Positions 7,687-23,353 of a DNA stretch of 24,000 nucleotides are shown in pieces. Location: positions 1,273,585-1,297,584 of the forward strand of contig NZ_CP010951.1 in the NCBI RefSeq assembly GCF_001580455.1, written 5' to 3'. This DNA is from Ramlibacter tataouinensis. GTDB lineage: Bacteria > Pseudomonadota > Gammaproteobacteria > Burkholderiales > Burkholderiaceae_C. Every line of letters starts with the position of its first letter. The first letter of the stretch is position 1. The position numbers and the translations under genes are program-made. A model generated the notes under the pieces. That model was given only the letters and a program-made list of their open reading frames with translations, did not search any database and had not been told where the DNA came from.

Positions 7687-8103
7687 TCAGCTGGCCGAGG
7701 GCGGCGCGGCGGCCGCGCGCTCCTTCTGCACCCGTTCCGTCACGTCGCGCGCGATCGCGACCGAACCGGCCACGCCACCCGCGTCGTCTTTCACCACGGC
7801 GAAGGTCATCTCGACGTAGAGTTTGTCCCCGTTCTTGCGCTCGGCCCGCGTCAAGGACGGCCGGCCGGCCAGCCGGGTCTGGCCGGTCGTCATCGCTTTG
7901 CCGAAGCCGGTCCAATGGGCTGCGCGCAAGCGTTCCGGAATGATCAGGTCGAGGTTCTGGCCCAGGGCCTCCGCGGCGCTGTAGCCGAACAGCCTGCCGG
8001 CAGCCTCGTTCCAGCGGACGATGTTGCCGGCGGGATCAGCAAAGATGAGGGCATCCGTTGTTTGCTCGAGGATCCATTCCGCCAGCTGTGGAGATTCGTT
8101 CAT
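7687..8103 (-). CDS. Single-domain PAS sensor protein (138 aa), no output domain
   Basis: PAS S-box pattern: 'DALIFADPAGNIVRWNEAAGRLFGYSAAEALGQNLDLIIPE...GDKLYVEMTFAVVKDD.G...GSVAIARDVTERV'. Start placed at ATG 8101-8103 ('MNESPQ'), which has GGAG upstream. Confidence 0.8.
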   Translation of the reverse strand: MNESPQLAEWILEQTTDALIFADPAGNIVRWNEAAGRLFGYSAAEALGQNLDLIIPERLRAAHWTGFGKAMTTGQTRLAGRPSLTRAERKNGDKLYVEMTFAVVKDDAGGVAGSVAIARDVTERVQKERAAAAPPSAS

Positions 8104-8358
8104 GGTTGGGGCTCCAGGATGCACCCAAGGGGCCGCAAGGTCTGGTCTTGCGTGACACGTTCGGTGGGTGCTCGCCACATCCTACCGAAGCTGCCATGAC
8201 GCCGCTCTTGACCCAGGGCAGACATTGCTCGGGCGCGGGGGCAATCTGCGCGGGGTGCATCAGGCATTGCTGGCGAATCGGCTCCCTGCCATTTGCTCGA
8301 ACGAATGATTAGTGCGCCGGCGATCCCGCGAGGCCCGGAGTTCAGCAGAGGCGCGCGC

Positions 8359-8721
8359 TCAGGCCCGCCGCACTTCCATCACGCCGTGCTCGGTGGCCTG
8401 CTCGTAGGCCGATGCCTGGTGCGAAGCCAGGTGCAGCAGGATGCGCGGCGCCTGGGTCTTGATGACGCGGCGCAGCAGGATGCCTGCGGCCACCAGCAGC
8501 GCGCCGATCCACGGATAGCCGACCAGGGCCGCGGCAATGCCCGGGCCGATGATGGCGAGCGCCAGGGGCGTGGCGTGCGTGCGGTGAGCCACGAAGGGCG
8601 CCGCCAGCGCGGGATTGACGATGACGCGAAAGCGCCCGTGGGGCAGCCCGTTCCGGAATTCTTCGAAAGGGATGTATTCGGCAGTCTCCTGCACTGCGTT
8701 CTGGTCGTTCTGGCCGCTCAT
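8359..8721 (-). CDS. Small hypothetical membrane protein (120 aa, about 2 predicted TM helices)
   Basis: Strong GC3 bias. Hydrophobic stretch 'PLALAIIGPGIAAALVGYPWIGALLVAAGILL' flanked by charged residues. Co-directional, 72 nt downstream of the TAXI gene. No family recognised. Confidence 0.6.
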   Translation of the reverse strand: MSGQNDQNAVQETAEYIPFEEFRNGLPHGRFRVIVNPALAAPFVAHRTHATPLALAIIGPGIAAALVGYPWIGALLVAAGILLRRVIKTQAPRILLHLASHQASAYEQATEHGVMEVRRA

Positions 8722-8793
8722 GGCCGCATTCTGACATCGACGGCGGAGGCCTTCGGCGCTGCCCCTGACTCCACCGTCAGGTCGACGCGGATA

Positions 8794-10299
8794 TCAGCGC
8801 GGCGCGCTGGCAGCCGGCTGGGCTGTCGGCGCCAGCACCCGCGCGGCCGCCGTGTGCAAGGGCACCGTGAGGCCCTGGCGCGCCGTCGCGGCCGACACCT
8901 GCAGGCCTTGCGCGCTGCCGCGGGCGGCGAAGTCGCGCCCCTTGCGGAACACGAAGCTGGTGAGCGCGCCCACCTCGGCTTCGGACAGGTCCGCCCCCAC
9001 CAGCAACACGGCCGCGGTGGCCACGGTGTTCACGCCCGCGCCCTGCCTGGGATAGCTGCCGGCCGGGATGGCGTAGGCAAACAGGCCGGTGCGGCCAGCC
9101 GTCAGTTGCGCAATGGCGCTATCCGACAGCGGCAGCAGCTTGAGCGGCACGTTGGTCAGCGCGTCGCGCACGCTGTCGGCGGGAATGCCGATCACCTGCA
9201 GCACCGCATCCACTTCCTTGCGCCCCAGCGCCACCAGCGCGTCGGCCAGCCCGATCTCGCGCGCCTGGATGTCGCGCGGCGTCAGCCCATGCGCCTCCAG
9301 CACCCGCAGCACGGTGGTGCGCGAGGCGGCGCCGGGTTGCCCGATGGCGACGACCCGCCCGCGCAGGCTGGCCACCGCGGCCAAGCCGCTGTCGGCGCGC
9401 ACGATCACGTGCACCGCTTCCGGGTACAGGCTGCCGAGGGCGCGCAGCGCCGGTGCCGCACCGCGCGCCTGGAACGGGCCGGTGCCTTCGTAGGCGGCCA
9501 GCGCCGAGTCGGCCTGGGCCAGCGCGACCTGCACCTTGCCCTCGCGCAGCAGATCCAGGTTCTCCTCGCCACCGAAGGTCACCAGAGGCAGCGTGCGCGG
9601 TCCGCCGGGCTCGTCCAGGGCGCGCGCGAAGCGAAGGTACTGGCCATGTTCCGGGCCGGCGGCGATCGCATAGCCCGCGCTGGCGCGGGCCAGCCGCGCC
9701 CGGATGGATGCCTGCGCGGCGGTCAGTTCCTCCTCGATGATGGCCATCTGCGCCGGGGAGGTCTCCTTGGACACCGAATCGATCACCTTGCGCATCGCGT
9801 CCAGAATAGCGGCCGGACCGGTGGCGGTGTTGGTGGCATAGGCCGGCGCCTCCTTGGGCCGGAAGCCGGCGCCGGCCACCGCCACCCAATGGTCGGCCTC
9901 GCGCTTGTACAGCGCCGTGCCGTGCGCCCGCACGATGTCGCCTGCCTTGTTGCCGCCCGACTGCACGCCGCCCACCCCCTTGGGCCCCGCGCCCAAGGCC
10001 GAGACGAGGCCGGCCATGCCGGGGGCGTCCCAGGCGCCGAAGTCCATGTCCTTCTGCACGCGGAAGCTGGCGTCGTAGTAAACGATGCGGCGGCTCTCCC
10101 CCTCCGGCGCCTTCTGGTCGCGTTGCGAACCGCGCCGCTGCAAGTCCTGCAGCACCAGCGCCTCGCCGGGCAGCGCCTGCGCCACGCGCACCTCCACATC
10201 GCGCCGCAGGGCTTGCGTGTCGGGGCCGCCGCTGCAGCCGGCGAGCAGCATGAGCAGGCTCAACAGGAATCCAAGGTGGCGCATCTCAGGCTGCTTCAT
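8794..10299 (-). CDS. TAXI-family (TRAP-associated) solute-binding lipoprotein with an N-terminal extension of about 200 aa (501 aa)
   Basis: Lipobox signal 'LLSLLMLLAGC'. Residues ~205-480 match the TAXI/TIGR02122-type consensus by eye ('AAYEGTGPF', 'LRALGSLYPEAVHVIVRADSG', 'LRGRVVAIGQPGAASRTT', 'IPAGSYP...V.TVA'). GGAGG SD lies 5 nt upstream of ATG 10297-10299, embedded in the end of gltS. Confidence 0.85.
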   Translation of the reverse strand: MKQPEMRHLGFLLSLLMLLAGCSGGPDTQALRRDVEVRVAQALPGEALVLQDLQRRGSQRDQKAPEGESRRIVYYDASFRVQKDMDFGAWDAPGMAGLVSALGAGPKGVGGVQSGGNKAGDIVRAHGTALYKREADHWVAVAGAGFRPKEAPAYATNTATGPAAILDAMRKVIDSVSKETSPAQMAIIEEELTAAQASIRARLARASAGYAIAAGPEHGQYLRFARALDEPGGPRTLPLVTFGGEENLDLLREGKVQVALAQADSALAAYEGTGPFQARGAAPALRALGSLYPEAVHVIVRADSGLAAVASLRGRVVAIGQPGAASRTTVLRVLEAHGLTPRDIQAREIGLADALVALGRKEVDAVLQVIGIPADSVRDALTNVPLKLLPLSDSAIAQLTAGRTGLFAYAIPAGSYPRQGAGVNTVATAAVLLVGADLSEAEVGALTSFVFRKGRDFAARGSAQGLQVSAATARQGLTVPLHTAAARVLAPTAQPAASAPR

Positions 10300-10300
10300 C

Positions 10301-11491
10301 TCAGCCTCCCATGAAAGGCAGGGCCAGGATCAAAGTGAGCAGGAAGGCGTTCATCAGGTCGACGAAGAACGCTCCCGCCAGCGGGACGATCAGGTAGCTC
10401 TGCGGCGCCGGCCCGTAGCGCGCGGTAATGGCTTGCATGTTGGCCATGGCGGTGGCGGTCGATCCCATGCAGAAGCCGATGAAAGCCGAGCAGGTCACCG
10501 CGGCCTCGTAGTCGCGGCCCATGAAGCGGAAGCACACGAACACGGCGTACAGCGCGATGAACACCACCTGCAGCGCCAGGATCAGCAGCAGCGGACCCGC
10601 CGCCAGCACCACCTCGACCAGGTTCAGCGCCATCATGGTCATCACCAGGAACAGCGACAGGCACACGCCCGAGGTCAGGTCCGACGCCCGGTCGTCGAAG
10701 CGCAGGCGCAGGAAGGGGCCCAGGTTGCGGATGGCCACGCCCAGCAGCATGCACCACAGGAAGGCCGGGATGGTGATGGAGCCGCCGGAGAACCTGGCGG
10801 CCAGCCATTGGCCGGCGAGTACGGCCGCCAGCATGCCGGCCAGCGCGCCAATGACCCCCACGGTGGTGATCGCGCCGCGCTCGACGCGGTCGCCCTCGGC
10901 CACCGCCTCCTGCGCCGCCTCGGAGCGCAGGTGGTGGTGCGCGATCAGGTACTGCGCCACCGGACCGGCGATGATGCCGCCCAGGATCAGGCCCACGGTG
11001 GCCACCGTCATCGAGAGGTCCATCACCGATTGCAGGTTGTTGACGTCGGCGAAGCGCTCGGCATAGGCCGCGCCGGTGCCATGGCCGCCCACCAGGGTGA
11101 TCGAGCCCGACACCAGGCCGAAGATCGGGTGCAGGTCCAGCCCCCAGGAGCCGGCGATGCCCACCGCGTTCTGCACCAGGATGTAGGGAAACAGGATGAT
11201 CAGGAAGATCACGAGCGCCTTGCCGCCGCGCTTGAGCTGCCGCAGGTCCGCGCCCATGCCCACGCCGGCGAAGAACAGCAGCAGCAGCACCGGCTTGATG
11301 GTCTGGTCGATCTGCAGCCGGAAGCCGCTCGCCGTCGCCACGCCCGAGGCCAGCGCGGCGAACAGCAGTCCGCCGGTGATGGGGTCCGGGATGTTGTAGC
11401 GCGCCAGCAGGCCGATGCGCCGGTTCAACAAGGTCCCCACCAGCAGCACCACCAGCGCCGCCAGCAGCGATGTGAGCGAATCCAGTCGCAT
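10301..11491 (-). CDS. gltS: Sodium/glutamate symporter GltS (ESS family), 396 aa
   Basis: Collinear from memory with E. coli GltS: 'RYNIPDPITGGLL', 'GSITLVGGHGTGAAY', 'GPVAQYL', 'ANMQAITARYGP', 'VPLAGAFFVDLMNA'. Start set at ATG 11489-11491 ('MRLDSLTSLL'), where the first TM helix and the homology begin. Confidence 0.9.
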   Translation of the reverse strand: MRLDSLTSLLAALVVLLVGTLLNRRIGLLARYNIPDPITGGLLFAALASGVATASGFRLQIDQTIKPVLLLLFFAGVGMGADLRQLKRGGKALVIFLIILFPYILVQNAVGIAGSWGLDLHPIFGLVSGSITLVGGHGTGAAYAERFADVNNLQSVMDLSMTVATVGLILGGIIAGPVAQYLIAHHHLRSEAAQEAVAEGDRVERGAITTVGVIGALAGMLAAVLAGQWLAARFSGGSITIPAFLWCMLLGVAIRNLGPFLRLRFDDRASDLTSGVCLSLFLVMTMMALNLVEVVLAAGPLLLILALQVVFIALYAVFVCFRFMGRDYEAAVTCSAFIGFCMGSTATAMANMQAITARYGPAPQSYLIVPLAGAFFVDLMNAFLLTLILALPFMGG

Positions 11492-11620
11492 GGCGTTTTC
11501 CCCCGGCCCATTGCGGCCGAGTTCGATTCTGGACAGCAAGCCGCCGCCCCGGCAACTTGGACTTTGGGCGCATAAGCGCCTGCCGCCATGCACAATCGGT
11601 GGCCAGCAGGAGACGTTCAC

Positions 11621-16702: not shown

Positions 16703-16742
16703 TCAGTCCGCCTCAGTCCGCCTCGGTCCTCCTCAGTCCTTC
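16703..16742. repeat. Four tandem copies of a 10-nt unit (TCAGTCCGCC, TCAGTCCGCC, TCGGTCCTCC, TCAGTCCTTC)
   Basis: Read directly from the sequence between the convergent TfoX-N and LysR genes. The last unit contains the LysR stop codon (complement of 16733-16735). Confidence 0.85.
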
Positions 16743-17665
16743 TTCGCGACCTTGCGGACGCATTCCATGAACTGCGCGGTCGCCGCGGTCGGCCGCTGGC
16801 CGCGCAGGGTGATCATGCCCACCGGCGGCAGGTCCACCGCCACATCCAGGCGCAGGGCCTTGACCACGCCGAGCTGCTCGCCATGCCGGGCCACCGAATC
16901 CGCCATGAAGGCGACCGCGTCCCGTTCGTGGATGAACGCCAGCTGCGCCAGGAAGGAGGCGCTCTCCACCAGGTCGACCGGCGGGGGCAGCCCATAGCGG
17001 AAGAACTGCTGCTCCAGCTTGACCCGCAGTGACGCCCAGGGCGGCGGCAGCACGCAGGGCAGCGATGCGAGGTCGGACCAGGCGACCCGCCGCTTGCCGG
17101 CCAGCGCGTGCTGCGGGCGCACCACCGCCCGCATGGGTTCGTTGTACAGCGCCTCCGTCACCAGGTCGGGCGAGGCATAGCCGGGCTCCAGCCGCCCGAC
17201 GAACAGGTCCAGCTCGCCGATGCGCAGCTTGGGCAGCAGCTGCGTGAGGTCGCCTTCTTCCACCAGCACGGTGGCCTGCGCCGCCCGGCGCTTGAGCAGT
17301 TCCACCGCCGGCCCGACCACGGTCGGCAGTGCCACCACCATGGAGCCGATGCGGACGCGGCCGCTGGCGCCGCTTTCCTCCGCCGCGATCTCCTCGCGCG
17401 TGCGCTCGTACTCCGCCAGCACCTGGCGGGCAAAGCGGACGATGGAGGCGCCCGCCGGCGTCGGCTCGGTGCCGCGGGTGGAGCGCAGGAACAGGCTCAG
17501 GCCCAGCATGCTTTCCACCTCGCCCAGCATGCGCGAGACGGCCGGCTGGCTGACCGCGAGGAACTCGGCCGTGCGGCCCAGGTGGCGGAACTGGTCGAGC
17601 GCCACCACCAGCTGCAGGTGGCGCAGCTTGAGGTTGGAACGCAGGGCGCGGTCGATTCGGCTCAT
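16733..17665 (-). CDS. LysR-family transcriptional regulator (310 aa)
   Basis: N-terminal wHTH 'LRHLQLVVALDQFRHLGRTAEFLAVSQPAVSRMLGEVESMLGLSLF' plus a LysR effector domain. Divergently transcribed from the Bug/UxaA operon. Confidence 0.9.
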   Translation of the reverse strand: MSRIDRALRSNLKLRHLQLVVALDQFRHLGRTAEFLAVSQPAVSRMLGEVESMLGLSLFLRSTRGTEPTPAGASIVRFARQVLAEYERTREEIAAEESGASGRVRIGSMVVALPTVVGPAVELLKRRAAQATVLVEEGDLTQLLPKLRIGELDLFVGRLEPGYASPDLVTEALYNEPMRAVVRPQHALAGKRRVAWSDLASLPCVLPPPWASLRVKLEQQFFRYGLPPPVDLVESASFLAQLAFIHERDAVAFMADSVARHGEQLGVVKALRLDVAVDLPPVGMITLRGQRPTAATAQFMECVRKVAKKD

Positions 17666-17814
17666 GGCGCGATCATAGTTAACGTGGTCTGCATGAAGCG
17701 ATGATGATTATCGATTTGTCTGTTATGAAGCCGCCGGGAACAATCCGCTGCTCCAGCCCGTCTTTCCGAATGGGCCGCACGCGATTCGTCCACCGACCTC
17801 ATGAGGAGACATGC
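17666..17814. promoter_or_regulatory. Divergent LysR/Bug-operon control region with an AT-rich patch and small dyads
   Basis: This 149-bp gap between divergent genes contains the most AT-rich stretch I noticed (17671-17730). Within it are GTTAAC, a CGAT-N7-ATCG dyad (17699-17713, containing a T-N11-A arrangement typical of LysR sites) and a direct repeat TCTG..ATGAAGC x2. Promoter elements are not mapped. Confidence 0.35.
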
Positions 17815-18810
17815 ATGAATGAACTGAACATCCGCCGCCGCAGCGTGCTGCTGGGCGCCGCCGCCGGCGCGGCCGGCCTGGCCCTGCCGCAGCTGGCGCT
17901 GGCGGCCGACACCTACCCCGAGCGGCCGATCACCTTCATCTGCCCCTGGCCGGCCGGCGGCACCGCCGACGCGTCGATGCGCGCCATCTGCCAGACGGCC
18001 GCGCGCGTGCTCAAGCAGCCGATCGCGGTGGAGAATCGCGCCGGCGCCGCCGGCATGATCGGCGCCAAGGCGATCGCCTCGGCCAAGGCGGACGGCTACA
18101 CCATCGGCCAGATCCCGATTTCGGTGACGCGCTTTTCGCAGCTGGGCACGCTGCAGGCCGACCCGCGCAAGGATTTCACCTACCTCGCCCGCACCTCGGG
18201 CCAGACCTTCGGCATCGCCGTGCAGCCCGGCTCGCGCTTCAAGACGCTGCAGGAGATGGTGGCCCACGCCAAGGCCAACCCCGGCAAGGTCACCTATGCG
18301 CACGCGGGCGTCGGTGGCGCCACGCACGTCGGCATGGAAGAGTTCGCGCTGGCCGCGGGCATCCAGCTCAACGCCATTGCGTACAAGGGCGGCGCCGCCG
18401 CGCTGCAGGATACGCTGGGCGGGCAGGTCGACATGCTGGCCGACTCCAGCTCCTGGGCGCCGCACGTGGAAGCTGGCAAGCTGCGCCTGCTGGCCACCTG
18501 GGGCGAACAGCGCACGCCGCGCTTCAAGGACACGCCCACGCTCAAGGAGCTGGGCTTCAAGGTGGTGGTCGATGCGCCCAACGGCATCGGCGCGCCGGCC
18601 GGCCTGCCGCCGGAGGTCGAGAAGAAGCTGCGCGAGGCGCTGCGCGTCGCTGTCCTGAGCGAGGAGTTCAAGGCTGTGGCCGACCGCATCGATGCACCGG
18701 TGATGTATTTGGACGGTCCCGACTACCGCAAGTACGTGGGGCAGGTGTACGAGCACGAGACCCAGTTGATCGAGCGCCTCAAGCTGAAGGAGTTGCTGGC
18801 CAAGGGTTGA
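17815..18810 (+). CDS. Bug-family (TctC-like) tripartite tricarboxylate transporter substrate-binding protein (331 aa)
   Basis: Tat-like signal 'RRRSVLLGAAAGAAGLALPQLALA/AD'. Bug signatures: 'YPERPITFICPWPAGGTAD', 'VENRAGAAG', 'YAHAGVGGATH', 'IAYKGGA'. GAGGAGA SD lies 5 nt upstream of ATG 17815. Confidence 0.9.
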   Translation: MNELNIRRRSVLLGAAAGAAGLALPQLALAADTYPERPITFICPWPAGGTADASMRAICQTAARVLKQPIAVENRAGAAGMIGAKAIASAKADGYTIGQIPISVTRFSQLGTLQADPRKDFTYLARTSGQTFGIAVQPGSRFKTLQEMVAHAKANPGKVTYAHAGVGGATHVGMEEFALAAGIQLNAIAYKGGAAALQDTLGGQVDMLADSSSWAPHVEAGKLRLLATWGEQRTPRFKDTPTLKELGFKVVVDAPNGIGAPAGLPPEVEKKLREALRVAVLSEEFKAVADRIDAPVMYLDGPDYRKYVGQVYEHETQLIERLKLKELLAKG

Positions 18811-18869: not shown

Positions 18870-20387
18870 ATGAGTCCCCTGATCCGCCTGCATCCCGACG
18901 ACAACGTCCTGGTCGCCCGCGCGCCGCTGGCGCTGGGCCAGGTCCTGGACGACTTCGGCGTGAAGCTGCGCGCCCAGGTGCCGGCCGGCCACAAGGTCGC
19001 CGCGCGCCGCATCGCCCGCGGCGAACCGGTCTACAAGTACAACGCGGTGATCGGCGTGGCCGCGCGCGACATCGAGCCGGGCGACTACGTCCATTCGCAC
19101 AACCTGGCGCTGGCCGATTTCGAGCGCGACCCGGGCTTCGGCCTGGACGTGCGGCCGGTGGACTACGTCCCCGAGGACCAGCGCGCCCGCTTCCAGGGCT
19201 ATGTGCGCGAGGACGGCCGGGTCGGCACCCGCAATTTCATCGGCATCCTCAGTTCGGTCAACTGCTCGGCGACCGTCATCAGCCGCATCGCCGCGCACTT
19301 CACTCCCGAGCGGCTGCGCGACTTCCCGAACGTCGACGGCGTGGCGGCCTTCGCGCAGACCACCGGCTGCGGCATGTCCTCGCCCAGCGCGCACTTCGAC
19401 CTGCTGCGTCGCACGCTGGCCGGCTATGCGCGCCACCCGAACCTGGCCGGCGTGCTGATCGTCGGCCTGGGCTGCGAGCGCAACCAGGTGGCCGACCTGG
19501 TGGACTCGCAAGGCCTGGAACGCGGCCGCCTGCTGCGCACCATGGTCATGCAGGAGGTCGGCGGCACGCAGGAGACCATCGCCGCCGGCATCCGCGCGGT
19601 GGAGGAGATGCTGCCGCTGGCCAATGCCTACCGGCGCCAGCCGGTGCCGGCCAGCCACATCAAGGTGGGCCTGGAGTGCGGCGGCTCCGACGGCTTCTCC
19701 GGCATCACCGCCAACCCCGCGCTCGGCGCGGCCATGGACATCCTGGTGCGCCATGGCGGCACCGCCATCCTGTCGGAGACGCCCGAGATCCACGGCGTGG
19801 AATACATGCTCACGCGCCGCGCCGTGTCGCCCGAGGTCGGCCGCAAGCTGCTGCAGCGGCTGGACTGGTGGAAGGAATACACCCGCGGCCACAACGGGCA
19901 GTTCAACGGCGTGGTCGGCCCGGGCAACCAGGCCGGCGGCCTGGCCAACATCTTCGAGAAGTCGCTGGGTTCCGCCATGAAAGGCGGCACCACGCCGCTG
20001 CAGGGCGTGTACGAGTACGCAGAGCCCATCGACCGCAGCGGCTTCGTGTTCATGGACTCGCCGGGCTACGACCCGGTGGCCGTGACCGGCCAGATCGCCA
20101 GCGGCGCCAACCTGATCTGCTTCACCACCGGACGCGGCTCGATGTTCGGCTCCAAACCCGCGCCCACCATCAAGCTGGCCACCAACAGCGCGATGTACGA
20201 GAAGCTCAAGGGCGATATGGACGTCAACTGCGGCGCCATCCTCGACGGCGAGCTGGACGTGCCGGCGATGGGCCAGCGCATCTTCGAGGCGATCCTGCGC
20301 CATGCCTCCGGCGAGCCGACCAAGAGCGAGTCGCTGGGGCTGGGCGACCACGAGTTCGTGCCCTGGCACCTGGGCATCGTGAGCTGA
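18870..20387 (+). CDS. UxaA-family dehydratase (altronate/galactarate dehydratase-like, SAF N-domain), 505 aa
   Basis: N-terminal SAF domain 'LHPDDNVLVA...VPAGHKVA'. Collinear from memory with E. coli GarD: 'GTRNFIGILSSVNCSA', 'IVGLGCE', 'ECGGSDGFSGITANPALG', 'GGLANIFEKSLGS', 'FTTGRGS'. Confidence 0.9.
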   Translation: MSPLIRLHPDDNVLVARAPLALGQVLDDFGVKLRAQVPAGHKVAARRIARGEPVYKYNAVIGVAARDIEPGDYVHSHNLALADFERDPGFGLDVRPVDYVPEDQRARFQGYVREDGRVGTRNFIGILSSVNCSATVISRIAAHFTPERLRDFPNVDGVAAFAQTTGCGMSSPSAHFDLLRRTLAGYARHPNLAGVLIVGLGCERNQVADLVDSQGLERGRLLRTMVMQEVGGTQETIAAGIRAVEEMLPLANAYRRQPVPASHIKVGLECGGSDGFSGITANPALGAAMDILVRHGGTAILSETPEIHGVEYMLTRRAVSPEVGRKLLQRLDWWKEYTRGHNGQFNGVVGPGNQAGGLANIFEKSLGSAMKGGTTPLQGVYEYAEPIDRSGFVFMDSPGYDPVAVTGQIASGANLICFTTGRGSMFGSKPAPTIKLATNSAMYEKLKGDMDVNCGAILDGELDVPAMGQRIFEAILRHASGEPTKSESLGLGDHEFVPWHLGIVS

Positions 20388-20392
20388 GTCTT

Positions 20393-20406
20393 CCCCCCTT
20401 TTTTTT
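20393..20406. repeat. Homopolymer pair C6-T8 in the intercistronic spacer
   Basis: 'CCCCCCTTTTTTTT' read directly, immediately upstream of the GGAG SD of the ALDH gene. A T8 run is conspicuous in this GC-rich DNA. Confidence 0.85.
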
Positions 20407-20418
20407 CTGGAGCACCGC

Positions 20419-21894
20419 ATGCTGGGTCCCCTGGCGCGCCGCGAACTGCTGCGCGATCGCAACTTCATCGCCGGCCGTTGGCAAGGCGCGGCCGGCGGCG
20501 CCACGCTCGACGTGGCGGACCCGGCCACGCTGCAGGTCATCGCCCGCGTGGCCGACAGCGGCGCCGCCGATGCGCGGGCCGCGCTCGATTCGGCGCAGGC
20601 GGCCTTTCCCGCCTGGCGCGAGCGCACCGGCCGCGAGCGGGCCCAGCTGCTCAAGCAGTGGCACGCGCTGATCCTGGCGCACCAGGAGGACCTGGCGCGC
20701 ATCATCTCGGCCGAACAGGGCAAGCCGCTGGCCGAAGCGCGGGGCGAGGTGCTGTACGGCGCCTCGTACGTGGAGTGGTTCGCCGAAGAAGCCACCCGCG
20801 CCCACGGCGACATCATCCCGGAGCCGGTGCGCGGCAAGAAGCTGATGGCGGTGAAAGAGCCGGTGGGCGTGGTGGCGGCCATCACGCCCTGGAACTTCCC
20901 GCTGGCCATGATCGCGCGCAAGCTGGCGCCGGCGCTGGCTGCAGGGTGCTGCGTGGTGGCCAAGCCGGCCGAGGACACGCCACTCACCGCGCTGGCTTTG
21001 GTGGCGCTGGCCGAGGAAGCCGGCCTGCCCCCCGGGACGATCAACCTGGTCACCGCCTCGCGCGAGCGCACGCCCGAGGTGGTGGACCTGTGGCTGCGCG
21101 ATGCGCGGGTGCGCAAGATCACCTTCACCGGCTCCACGCCGGTGGGCAAGCAGCTGGCGCGCGCATCGGCCGACACGCTGAAGAAGCTCTCGCTGGAGCT
21201 GGGCGGCAACGCGCCCTTCATCGTGTTCGAGGATGCCGACCTCGACGCCGCCGTCGCTGGCCTGATGGCCGCCAAGTTCCGCAACGGCGGCCAGACCTGC
21301 GTCTGCCCCAACCGGGTTTACGTGCACGAGAGCGTGCACGAGCGCTTCGTCGACAAGCTGGCCGCGCGCGTGGGCGCGCTGACGGTGGGACCGGCCACAG
21401 ATGACGCTTCGCAGATCGGCCCCATGATCAACGCGCGCGCCGTGCAGAAGATCGAGCGCCATGTGCGCGACGCGCAGGCCCGCGGCGCGCGGGTGGTGGT
21501 GGGCGGCCGCGCGCTGCCGGACATCGGTGCCGGCCACTACTATGCGCCCACGGTGCTGATCGACGCCGATCCCGGCATGGAACTGGCGCAGGAAGAGACC
21601 TTCGGCCCGGTGGTTCCCGTGTTCCGCTTCGCCGACGAGGACGAGGCGGTGCGGCTGGCCAACGACACCCCCTTCGGCCTCGCGGCCTATTTCTACTCGC
21701 GCGATGCGGCGCGCATCTGGCGCGTGGCCGAACGGCTGGAGAGCGGCATCGTCGGCATCAACGAGGGCGCGCTGGCGGCCGAGGCGGCGCCCTTCGGCGG
21801 CATCAAGGAATCGGGCTACGGCCGCGAGGGCTCGCGCCACGGGCTGGACGACTACATGCACCTGAAATACCTGTGCCAGGGAGGACTTCGATGA
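20419..21894 (+). CDS. NAD(P)+-dependent aldehyde dehydrogenase, succinate-semialdehyde / 2,5-dioxovalerate dehydrogenase-like (491 aa)
   Basis: GabD-like ALDH motifs: 'ITPWNFP', 'KPAEDTPLTA', 'FTGST', 'LELGGNAP' and catalytic Cys 'FRNGGQTCVCPNR'. GGAG lies 6 nt upstream of the ATG. Confidence 0.9.
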   Translation: MLGPLARRELLRDRNFIAGRWQGAAGGATLDVADPATLQVIARVADSGAADARAALDSAQAAFPAWRERTGRERAQLLKQWHALILAHQEDLARIISAEQGKPLAEARGEVLYGASYVEWFAEEATRAHGDIIPEPVRGKKLMAVKEPVGVVAAITPWNFPLAMIARKLAPALAAGCCVVAKPAEDTPLTALALVALAEEAGLPPGTINLVTASRERTPEVVDLWLRDARVRKITFTGSTPVGKQLARASADTLKKLSLELGGNAPFIVFEDADLDAAVAGLMAAKFRNGGQTCVCPNRVYVHESVHERFVDKLAARVGALTVGPATDDASQIGPMINARAVQKIERHVRDAQARGARVVVGGRALPDIGAGHYYAPTVLIDADPGMELAQEETFGPVVPVFRFADEDEAVRLANDTPFGLAAYFYSRDAARIWRVAERLESGIVGINEGALAAEAAPFGGIKESGYGREGSRHGLDDYMHLKYLCQGGLR

Positions 21895-21917
21895 CCACGC
21901 TCTCAGCCGCATACTGA
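21891..21917 (+). other. 8-codon mini-ORF (MTTLSAAY*) bridging the ALDH and FAD-oxidase genes
   Basis: ATG 21891-21893 overlaps the ALDH stop TGA 21892-21894 (ATGA). It is preceded by AGGGAGGA (21878-21885) at a 5-6 nt spacing. Its stop TGA 21915-21917 overlaps the ATG 21917-21919 of the next gene (TGATG). Confidence 0.4.
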
Positions 21918-23353
21918 TGCTCTCCATGGACGTTTCCTCCCCCGCACCCCTGGCCGAGGCCCTGGCCGACATCGTCGGCGCCTCGGCCTGCCTCACCGCG
22001 CCCGCCGACGTCGCACCCTTCGTCACCGACTACCGCAAGATCTACACCGGCCGGGCCGCCGCCGTGGTCCTGCCCTCCAGCACGGATCAGGTGAGCCGCG
22101 TCATGGCCTGGTGCTATGCCCACGGCGTACCGGTGGTGCCGCAGGGCGGCAACACCTCGCTGATGGGGGGCGCCGTGCCGGACGCCCACGGCGGCGCGGT
22201 GGTGCTGGGCCTGTCGCGCATGAACCGCGTGCTGGAAGTGGACGAAACCAACGACACCCTGACCGTGCAGGCGGGCGTGACGCTGGCGGCCGCGCGCGCG
22301 GCCGCCGAGCAGGCCGGCCGCCTGTTTCCGCTGCGCATTGGCTCGGAGGGCTCGTGCCAGATCGGCGGCAACCTCTCCACCAACGCCGGCGGCACCGCGG
22401 TGCTGCGCTACGGCAACATGCGCGACCTGGTGCTGGGCATCGAGGCGGTGCTGCCCGACGGCCGCATCTACCGGGGCCTGCGCGGCCTGCGCAAGGACAA
22501 CACCGGCTACGACCTCAAGCAGCTGTTCGTCGGCTCGGAAGGCACACTGGGCATCATCACGGCCGCGGTGCTGAAACTCGCGCCCCTGCCGCGCGCCACC
22601 TCGGCGGCGTTCGTCGCGGTCACCGACGTCGAGGCCGCGGTGCAGCTGCTGGGCGAAGCCAAGCGGGTGGCCGGCCCGGCCGTGACCGCGTTCGAACTCA
22701 TTTCAGCCCCGGCGCTGGCGCTGGTGCGCCAGTACCTGGGCGGCGTGCCCTCGCCGCTGGCGCAGGAGCACGACTGGATGGTGCTGGTGGAGCTGAACTC
22801 GGGCGGCGCACAGCAGGCGTTGGACGAGACGCTGCAGCAGGTGCTGGAGACCGGCATGGAGCGCGGCTGGGTGCAGGACGCGGCCCTCGCGGCCAGCCTG
22901 GCCGACGTGCAGCATTTTTGGCGCCTGCGCGAGGAGATCTCGGATGCCCAGACCCGCACCGGCGGCAGCGTCCGCTGCGACGTCTCGGTGCCGCTGTCAC
23001 GCATCGCCGCCTTCGTGCGCAAGGCCTCGGCCGGCGTGCTGGCGCTGGTGCCCGAGTCGCGCATGGTCATCTACGGCCACATGGGCGATGGCAACGTGCA
23101 CTTCAACCCGCTGCGGCCCGCGCGGCAGACCGCCGCCGATTTCCTCGCGGCCCACCATGCGCGCGTGAGCCGCCTGGTGGACGACGTGGCGCACGGCATG
23201 GGCGGCTCCATCTCGGCCGAGCACGGCGTCGGCGTGGCCAAGCGTGATGAACTGGCCAACTACAAGGACCCGGTGGAACTGGAGCTGATGCGGCAGTTGA
23301 AGCAGGCGTTGGATCCGAAGGGCCTGTTGAATCCGGGCAAGGTGCTGCGCTGA
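21917..23353 (+). CDS. FAD-binding oxidoreductase, GlcD / D-2-hydroxyacid (D-2-hydroxyglutarate) dehydrogenase-like (478 aa)
   Basis: FAD_binding_4 pattern: 'VVPQGGNTSLMGGAVP', 'GNLSTNAGG', 'RYGNMRDLVLGIEAVLPDG', 'KDNTGYDLKQLFVGSEGTLGIIT'. C-terminal 'SAEHGVGVAKR...LDPKGLLNPGK'. The start may be ATG 21917 or ATG 21926, and neither has its own SD. Confidence 0.85.
   Translation: MLSMDVSSPAPLAEALADIVGASACLTAPADVAPFVTDYRKIYTGRAAAVVLPSSTDQVSRVMAWCYAHGVPVVPQGGNTSLMGGAVPDAHGGAVVLGLSRMNRVLEVDETNDTLTVQAGVTLAAARAAAEQAGRLFPLRIGSEGSCQIGGNLSTNAGGTAVLRYGNMRDLVLGIEAVLPDGRIYRGLRGLRKDNTGYDLKQLFVGSEGTLGIITAAVLKLAPLPRATSAAFVAVTDVEAAVQLLGEAKRVAGPAVTAFELISAPALALVRQYLGGVPSPLAQEHDWMVLVELNSGGAQQALDETLQQVLETGMERGWVQDAALAASLADVQHFWRLREEISDAQTRTGGSVRCDVSVPLSRIAAFVRKASAGVLALVPESRMVIYGHMGDGNVHFNPLRPARQTAADFLAAHHARVSRLVDDVAHGMGGSISAEHGVGVAKRDELANYKDPVELELMRQLKQALDPKGLLNPGKVLR

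Follow-up and report, generated by a model that had tools for sequence, protein, structure and literature searches.

The locus analysed here raises the question of whether a gltS gene and the gene for a TAXI-family lipoprotein that follows it encode one glutamate uptake system, and whether a small membrane protein gene located further downstream is part of it. The window, i.e. the whole 24-kb stretch of Ramlibacter DNA under study, was initially annotated as containing a candidate for a new class of SBP-dependent secondary transporter. This design, although soundly reasoned from the raw sequence, is not a new discovery, as the same system has been in the literature since 2024/2025 for BP0402/BP0403 of B. 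pertussis (Jaques et al. 2025, Commun Biol 8:1201; PMC12344293), where the BP0403 gene is translationally coupled to gltS and homologues in other bacteria are reported. The published claim is mostly qualitative, and the comparative analysis below adds numbers to it. It indicates that the Ramlibacter genes probably form a two-gene system of the BP0402/BP0403 type, devoid of a third subunit.

The gltS gene and its product

The gltS gene lies on the minus strand from coordinates 10301 to 11491, with its ATG at 11491, and codes for an ESS-family Na+/glutamate symporter of 396 amino acids. The product matches PF03616 with an E-value of 1.5e-103 and reaches 370 bits with the equivalog model TIGR00210, the cutoff of which is 310.75 bits. 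The GC content per codon position (0.66/0.44/0.94) is coding-like. The same criterion led to the dismissal of two long ORFs on the plus strand, from 8293 to 10314 and from 10085 to 11575, as shadow ORFs, the genome having a GC content of 69%. Compared to GltS of E. coli (b3653), which passes the same equivalog model, the window protein shows 39% identity over its full length and is collinear, the 399-column alignment containing 4 gap positions. No extra docking element was seen in this alignment with the stand-alone E. coli protein, and judged by sequence the window gltS product looks like an ordinary ESS-family Na+/glutamate carrier. As a counterpoint to a BP0402/BP0403-type model, this collinearity means that the window GltS may work alone.

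A ribosome-binding site within the last gltS codons

The junction between the two genes was read directly from the sequence and extends from 10297 to 10309 on the minus strand. A GGAGG motif at 10309-10305 falls within the final two Gly codons of gltS and is followed by the TGA stop codon (10303-10301), a single nucleotide (10300) and the TAXI start codon ATG (10299-10297), so that both the 1-nt spacing and the embedded Shine-Dalgarno sequence of the initial annotation are correct. Among 66 related loci, 65 carry GGAG or GAGG within the final 12 nucleotides of gltS, and in 64 the TAXI start codon lies between -4 and +4 nucleotides from the gltS stop. The ribosome-binding site of the TAXI gene is thus built into the Gly-Gly codons of the GltS C-terminus, and the start-stop coupling is almost invariant. 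The NCBI annotation places the start of the TAXI protein at Met6, which gives a product of 496 amino acids and would leave a gap of 16 nucleotides. The ATG at 10299-10297 is the better supported start, given the spacing kept in 64/66 loci and the fact that gene callers likewise placed the TAXI start 1 nucleotide past the gltS stop in close relatives.

Conservation of the gltS-TAXI pair

The initial annotation had paired GltS with a TAXI lipoprotein instead of the DctQM membrane subunits of TRAP transporters, and had suggested that a neighbourhood survey and a co-evolution test be carried out on the two genes. The survey set consisted of 67 genomes of Comamonadaceae, Burkholderiaceae and Alcaligenaceae coding for a long TAXI protein. 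In 66 of them gltS was found directly upstream of the long TAXI gene and on the same strand. The adjacency also extends beyond close relatives, since gltS lies immediately upstream in all four distant cluster representatives, which share 26-28% identity in the N-terminal part. Three relatives at 81-87% identity keep the gltS-TAXI pair but differ from the window on both flanks, and no other gene family was found to be conserved around the pair in the related loci. The pairing is therefore not due to chance, and gltS and the TAXI gene form a self-contained two-gene cassette spread through the Burkholderiales. The long TAXI protein is found in Alpha- and Gammaproteobacteria as well. One apparent GltS-TAXI fusion (P0247) was discarded as an assembly artefact, since it is frameshifted both where its GltS part ends and at the C-terminus of the whole protein.

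The pairwise distances of GltS and TAXI proteins, compared by a mirror-tree approach in 54 loci and the window, were correlated with r = 0.945, a value that is consistent with co-inheritance but is expected of any two linked genes and is no proof of physical interaction.

The DctQ and DctM models (PF04290 and PF06808) matched none of the window's 19 remaining coding-like ORFs, in agreement with the initial annotation. The genes that characterize TAXI-TRAP systems are thus missing from the window, and the place of the TRAP membrane subunits is held by gltS in 66/67 loci.

These data bear on the possibility that the two proteins are co-expressed but functionally independent, GltS transporting glutamate alone while the TAXI protein feeds an unlinked DctQM, senses or buffers periplasmic glutamate, or plays a structural role. 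The likeness of the window GltS to its stand-alone E. coli counterpart is in line with this idea, as are the existence of "orphan" TRAP binding proteins (PMC12344293) and the reported connection of a glutamate-specific TAXI protein of V. cholerae with the biofilm matrix (PMC12718363); moreover, transport coupling of GltS and TAXI proteins is a proposal in PMC12344293. Shared regulation is nevertheless insufficient to account for a start-stop coupling that is maintained in nearly all loci and in distant lineages despite changing flanks. The N-terminal module described below, found in gltS-adjoining TAXI proteins of the sample examined, the single-chain TAXI-GltS fusions reported in PMC12344293 and the lack of a DctQ/DctM gene in the window also argue against independence, which we consider unlikely.

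Domain organization of the TAXI lipoprotein

The TAXI gene (10299 to 8794, minus strand) codes for a lipoprotein of 501 amino acids, the C-terminal part of which is a TAXI binding domain. Its matches to PF16868 (E-value 2.4e-47) and TIGR02122 (183.8 bits for a cutoff of 84.35) are confined to residues 238 to 488, which leaves some 200 extra N-terminal residues. This extension, overlooked in the initial annotation, is the distinctive feature of the long TAXI family. The AlphaFold 2 model of the whole protein has a mean pLDDT of 86 and contains three domains, at about residues 28-140, 162-208 and 210-490.

A putative lipoprotein signal peptide covers residues 1 to 22 (10234 to 10299), with a lipobox L-A-G-C and Cys22 as the lipidation site according to the motif. 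Two alignments, of 19 and 72 homologues, show Cys22 without exception, and the signal-peptide region contains a helix (residues 6-20) in the model. The residue after the Cys is Ser or Gly among the homologues, Ser in the window protein, and never Asp; if the E. coli sorting rule is assumed to apply, the lipoprotein would be retained in the inner membrane.

The following N-terminal alpha/beta domain (NTD; residues 23-142, coordinates 9874 to 10233), delimited from the AlphaFold 2 model, was predicted with a pLDDT of 89 when modelled alone. It matched no Pfam or NCBIfam family and had no significant fold match in the PDB, PilO (2RJZ) ranking fourth with an E-value of 0.17. A search with this N-terminal module retrieved 236 clusters, the full-length matches being of ~480-525 amino acids, and PF16868 was present in 9/9 full-length proteins sampled. 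In these, the NTD is located at the N-terminus of TAXI proteins of ~500 amino acids. The NTD and the binding domain are conserved to a similar degree, with mean distances of 0.34 and 0.375, respectively.

A disordered linker (residues 143-160) separates the NTD from a helical hairpin domain (residues 161-208, coordinates 9676 to 9819), which is composed in the model of helices at residues 162-177 and 182-208. Within the hairpin, conservation in the homologue alignments is complete at E191, L192 and A195 and at least 90% at L203; L203 occupies the position expected for L201 of BP0403 from a numbering offset of +2. The BP0403 dimer forms via its helical domain (PMC12344293), and by analogy with these experiments the hairpin is predicted to be a dimerization module.

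The TAXI substrate-binding domain itself spans residues 209 to 490 (8830 to 9675), is recognized by TIGR02122, PF16868 and fold match, and is a predicted L-glutamate binder. The remaining residues, 491 to 501, together with the stop codon (8794 to 8829), make up a variable tail that differs in length and sequence among the homologues and has a pLDDT below 65. The best PDB fold matches of the binding domain are the glutamate-bound TAXI structures 9IBO/8S4J, 1US4 and 8U79, with a target TM-score of 0.83. Y221 is invariant and Q262 at least 90% conserved in the homologue alignments, and both align to the GvY and alaQnD motifs of the glutamate-bound TAXI protein of T. thermophilus. Q262 also aligns with Gln65 of the VcGluP chain, which is taken, under an assumed offset, as Q93 of PMC12344293. 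The window domain thus appears to keep the glutamate-contacting Tyr and Gln and is predicted from its sequence to bind L-glutamate.

The N-terminal module might suggest that the TAXI protein acts as a regulator of GltS and not as a substrate donor, for example with the NTD clamping the transport domain and gating or inhibiting uptake in response to periplasmic glutamate. The published AlphaFold 3 model of a 2:2 complex indeed sets the NTD on the GltS transport domain (PMC12344293), and the conservation of this domain and its lack of significant structural relatives would be compatible with such an activity. [quoted passage not shown] In addition, TAXI proteins of conventional size that lack the NTD have also been reported to adjoin gltS (PMC12344293). 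A purely regulatory function therefore appears quite improbable.

The downstream gene

A conserved hypothetical membrane protein of 120 amino acids is encoded on the same strand from 8359 to 8721, starting 72 nucleotides past the TAXI stop codon. The gene is genuine, as indicated by its coding-like GC content per codon position (0.73/0.47/0.87) and by 365 homologues. The two transmembrane segments proposed in the initial annotation fit its single hydrophobic stretch of ~42 residues (residues 48-90), which offers room for two membrane helices. A simple scan for promoters and terminators between 8000 and 12000 found none, and thus none between the TAXI gene and this gene, which neither favours nor disfavours read-through. 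The initial annotation had gone further and assigned the small protein to a tripartite layout with GltS and the TAXI protein, analogous to TRAP (DctQ) and TTT (TctB) systems. This close, same-strand arrangement is not conserved. A homologue of the 120-amino-acid protein was found within 6 kb in none of the 67 related TAXI-gltS loci, nor is any small membrane protein family conserved near the pair. The small gene is also missing from the three closest relatives examined, at 81-87% identity, in which the gene downstream of TAXI codes for a dehydrogenase, an HTH protein or a DJ-1 protein, and the homologues of the small protein occur in three unrelated contexts, all devoid of gltS or TAXI genes. 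The comparative data effectively refute the tripartite model, which can be regarded as extremely improbable, and the small gene is best considered a neighbour outside the system.

A probable two-component glutamate uptake system

In the two-gene TAXI-GltS system of the BP0402/BP0403 type that we favour, ribosomes ending the synthesis of GltS would restart at the TAXI gene, so that both products would be made together. The lipoprotein would be tethered at the periplasmic face, probably as a dimer held by its helical hairpin, where it would capture L-glutamate at sub-micromolar affinity and pass it to a dimeric, elevator-type GltS. A medium-affinity carrier would thereby be turned into a high-affinity scavenging system. 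By comparison, the Km of E. coli GltS is 13.5-30 uM (PMC12344293), which exceeds the Kd of the BP0403 domain ~100-fold.

More tentatively, GltS could depend obligately on the lipoprotein, with the family-specific N-terminal and helical modules serving as a dedicated clamp that docks, in a 2:2 complex, onto the mobile transport domain. The comparative data are compatible with this reading, given the near-universal coupling and the presence of the N-terminal module in the gltS-linked TAXI proteins of the sample examined, but we hold it to be somewhat doubtful. If it were true, TAXI-GltS would join TRAP and TTT as a third class of secondary transporters that depend on a binding protein, a class already proposed in the literature, where the coupling of TAXI and GltS in transport "needs to be experimentally verified" (PMC12344293). 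The Ramlibacter system, or that of Cupriavidus, if taken from a non-pathogenic strain, could be a convenient model to study the transfer of substrate from TAXI to GltS and the role of the NTD.

Comparison with known systems

The closest counterpart is BP0402/BP0403, also from a member of the Betaproteobacteria, in which gltS likewise lies directly upstream of the TAXI gene, to which it is translationally coupled, and no TRAP membrane genes are found nearby. BP0403 has the same three-domain plan, its NTD (residues 20-139) and SBP domain (208-503) matching the boundaries of the window protein, and a lipoprotein signal peptide, which in the window protein is assigned from its motif. Its residues Y219 and Q263 (Y45 and Q93 of VcGluP) appear to correspond to Y221 and Q262, as judged from the near-identical numbering and from alignments with other TAXI proteins. 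The junctions differ, with a 3-bp overlap in B. pertussis and a 1-nt gap with GGAGG in the window, as do the hosts, a pathogen on the one hand and Ramlibacter, a soil member of the Comamonadaceae, on the other. No Bordetella entry was present among the best 120 matches to a profile of 18 Alcaligenaceae proteins or among ten cluster representatives of ~500 amino acids.

In E. coli, gltS differs from the window gene in having no adjoining binding-protein gene in the MG1655 region examined. The binding proteins of TAXI-TRAP systems, such as VcGluP (VC0430) of Vibrio cholerae and the Thermus thermophilus TAXI protein (8S4J, 9IBO, 1US4, 8U79), share the fold of the binding domain at 27-29% identity as well as the glutamate-contacting Tyr/Gln motif. 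They are, however, of 300-350 amino acids, are described as typically monomeric and function with DctQM-type membrane subunits, whereas the window protein has ~200 additional N-terminal residues, a motif-predicted lipid anchor and GltS as its probable membrane partner. The natural single-chain fusions of Lachnospiraceae (PMC12344293) also combine TAXI and GltS modules, but in these proteins GltS carries the binding domain at its N-terminus, and neither the N-terminal nor the helical module is present, whereas in the window the two proteins are encoded by separate, coupled genes.

Gene pair and junction

The gltS gene (ATG at 11491, TGA at 10303-10301, minus strand) encodes a 396-aa GltS sodium/glutamate symporter (PF03616, E 1.5e-103; TIGR00210, 370 bits for a cutoff of 310.75), collinear with the stand-alone GltS of E. 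coli at 39% identity. It is followed on the same strand by a TAXI gene of 501 codons (ATG at 10299-10297, end at 8794), the product of which matches TIGR02122 (183.8 bits) and PF16868 over residues 238-488 only. As read in the initial annotation, a single base (10300) separates the gltS stop from the TAXI ATG, a GGAGG motif (10309-10305, minus strand) is embedded in the final two glycine codons of gltS, and a 120-aa ORF (8721..8359, minus strand) lies 72 nt 3' of the TAXI gene. According to their GC content by codon position, these three minus-strand ORFs are coding frames, and the long plus-strand ORFs above them were discarded as shadows in this 69% GC genome.

An NCBI protein with 100% identity assigns the window to Ramlibacter solisilvae. 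In NCBI, the TAXI protein starts at a second ATG, Met6, which yields 496 aa (both ATGs are within 10282-10299, minus strand). The first ATG, and thus the 501-aa product, is favoured here on sequence grounds, because related loci keep a start codon 0-2 nt past the gltS stop. A double-ATG pattern like that of the window is also present in some Cupriavidus loci (TGA G ATG GGG GCT GAG ATG).

Conservation of the gltS-TAXI pairing

A scan using one genome per species yielded 67 loci encoding a full-length long TAXI protein, among them loci from Cupriavidus, Ralstonia, Caballeronia, Pararobbsia, Ramlibacter and Roseateles/Paucibacter, as well as many Alcaligenaceae and some metagenome bins. gltS was found directly upstream of the TAXI gene and on the same strand in 66 of the 67. 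At 64 of these 66 gltS-linked loci the TAXI start codon lies between -4 and +4 nt from the gltS stop, TGA-N-ATG and TGA-NN-ATG being the most frequent junction forms, and the 1-nt junction is kept in three relatives with 81-87% identity. GGAG or GAGG occurs within the final 12 nt of gltS in all but one of the gltS-linked loci (65/66); in effect, the codons for the conserved Gly-Gly at the GltS C-terminus provide the Shine-Dalgarno sequence of the TAXI gene.

A search with the N-terminal 183 residues of the TAXI protein among 1.84 billion cluster representatives retrieved 236 clusters; Pseudolabrys (Alphaproteobacteria) and Pseudomonas spp. are among the members with a name. The full-length matches are ~480-525 aa long with the module at the N-terminus, and PF16868 was present in all nine that were sampled. 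gltS lies immediately upstream in all four representatives looked up from among the most distant ones (26-28% identity). Because the pairing holds both in the long-TAXI loci and in these distant representatives, the adjacency reaches past close relatives; judged from these sequence comparisons, it is not due to chance.

Three loci are exceptions. At locus L020 (5700-7360), from Variovorax saccharolyticus, a TAXI gene of the long family has no gltS match in the locus; its product lacks the first ~50 residues and a recognisable signal peptide, and the gene is probably a decaying remnant. In Paucibacter sp. XJ19-41 (locus L036, 5000-5115), an insertion of ~110 nt separates the gltS stop from the TAXI start precisely at the junction, where its close relatives L035 and L044 have TGA-G-ATG; a short repeat or mobile element may thus have disrupted the coupling. 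Locus L067 (5450-7431), from a beta-proteobacterial metagenome bin, has a long TAXI gene that is divergent (35% identity) and an upstream gltS match fragmented into five pieces, and could represent a pseudogene or an assembly problem. The metagenome library protein P0247, a candidate single-chain GltS-TAXI fusion, was rejected as a frameshift artefact, its GltS C-terminus and TAXI end being out of frame.

The small membrane protein and other genes of the window

The 120-aa ORF is coding-like and belongs to a conserved family of small membrane proteins with 365 homologues (Variovorax, Methylibium and Rubrivivax among those named), the best 120 of which show ~70-85% identity; no Pfam or NCBIfam model was found for this family. 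The initial annotation had placed this protein as the small membrane subunit of a tripartite, TRAP/TTT-like layout. None of the 67 long-TAXI loci contains a homologue, and in the three 81-87% relatives the TAXI gene is followed by genes for a short-chain dehydrogenase, an HTH protein or a DJ-1 protein. When all flanking ORFs were clustered, gltS and TAXI were the sole conserved families; the next cluster, excluding antisense shadows, comprised at most 15 loci and apparently reflects lineage-specific synteny. Three homologues of the 120-aa protein that were examined lie in three differing neighbourhoods, all devoid of gltS or TAXI. The tripartite layout was rejected on these grounds, and a third small membrane subunit, which would have been the new element, is not supported. 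The gene 3' of the 120-aa one (7687-8178, minus strand) encodes a 163-aa protein consisting of a PAS domain without output domain.

In agreement with the initial annotation, neither DctQ nor DctM was detected when the remaining 19 coding-like ORFs in the 24-kb window were scanned with Pfam. A binding protein of the TctC family (tripartite tricarboxylate transporter) is encoded at 17701-18810 (plus strand), with no TctA or TctB within the window. It is flanked by a LysR regulator gene on one side (16733-17665, minus strand) and by genes for a galactarate/altronate-dehydratase-family enzyme, an aldehyde dehydrogenase and an FAD-linked oxidase on the other (18870-23353, plus strand). The region resembles a cluster for sugar-acid catabolism in which the binding protein is an orphan; nothing evident connects this binding protein with the gltS-TAXI pair.

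Domain organization of the TAXI protein

The AlphaFold2 model of the TAXI protein (mean pLDDT 86) shows a signal helix (residues 6-20), followed by a lipobox (LAGC) whose Cys22 is invariant in homologue alignments, and then a three-domain plan made of an alpha/beta domain (28-140), a helical hairpin (162-208) preceded by a disordered linker (143-159), and the binding domain (210-490). The top PDB matches of the binding domain are the glutamate-bound VcGluP (9IBO/8S4J) and the Thermus TAXI protein (1US4/8U79), with a target TM-score of 0.83. The glutamate-site residues are conserved: Y221 belongs to a GQY motif that is invariant, and the conservation of Q262 is at least 90%. Both have aligned counterparts, Tyr and Gln, in the Thermus protein, and Q262 aligns with Gln65 of the VcGluP chain, taken as the published Q93 on an assumed offset. 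No significant structural relative was found for the N-terminal domain modelled alone (pLDDT 89), PilO being retrieved only at E 0.17.

The residue following the lipidated Cys22 (residues 22-23, at 10231-10236, minus strand) is Ser in the window and Gly or Ser in the homologues, never Asp. According to the Lol rule of E. coli, which may not be that of the Burkholderiales, a residue other than Asp at this position directs a lipoprotein to the outer membrane. Retention of the TAXI lipoprotein in the inner membrane is therefore an assumption.

Proposed function and comparison with B. pertussis

GltS and the TAXI lipoprotein would be co-translated, and the lipid-anchored, probably dimeric binding protein would bind L-glutamate with sub-micromolar affinity and present it to the dimeric, elevator-type GltS for high-affinity scavenging, a scheme that draws partly on experiments and models for the B. 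pertussis TAXI protein BP0403. The two proteins might instead be co-expressed yet function independently, which the invariant start-stop coupling and the reported TAXI-GltS fusions make less likely. That the lipoprotein regulates or gates GltS is less probable still.

BP0403 is a 503-aa lipoprotein in which a helical domain lies between an N-terminal alpha/beta domain (20-139) and a TAXI domain (208-503); Y219 and Q263 mediate its binding of L-glutamate (Kd 180 nM), and it dimerizes via the helical domain, the L201R substitution rendering it monomeric (PMC12344293). Its gene is translationally coupled to the gltS gene BP0402, and the vicinity lacks genes for TRAP membrane subunits; other bacteria have homologous pairs, and Lachnospiraceae have TAXI-GltS fusions (PMC12344293). 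Functional coupling of TAXI and GltS was proposed by these authors, who called for experimental verification (PMC12344293). The new class of transporter put forward in the initial annotation had thus already been hypothesized in print (PMC12344293), since the window pair fits the description of BP0402/BP0403. The comparative counts strengthen this published hypothesis without extending it in kind. The gltS-TAXI feature is real, was read correctly and is biologically meaningful; compared with BP0402/BP0403 by published description, it agrees in every architectural and contextual feature, and thus represents an ordinary example of a type of system that has been described only recently.
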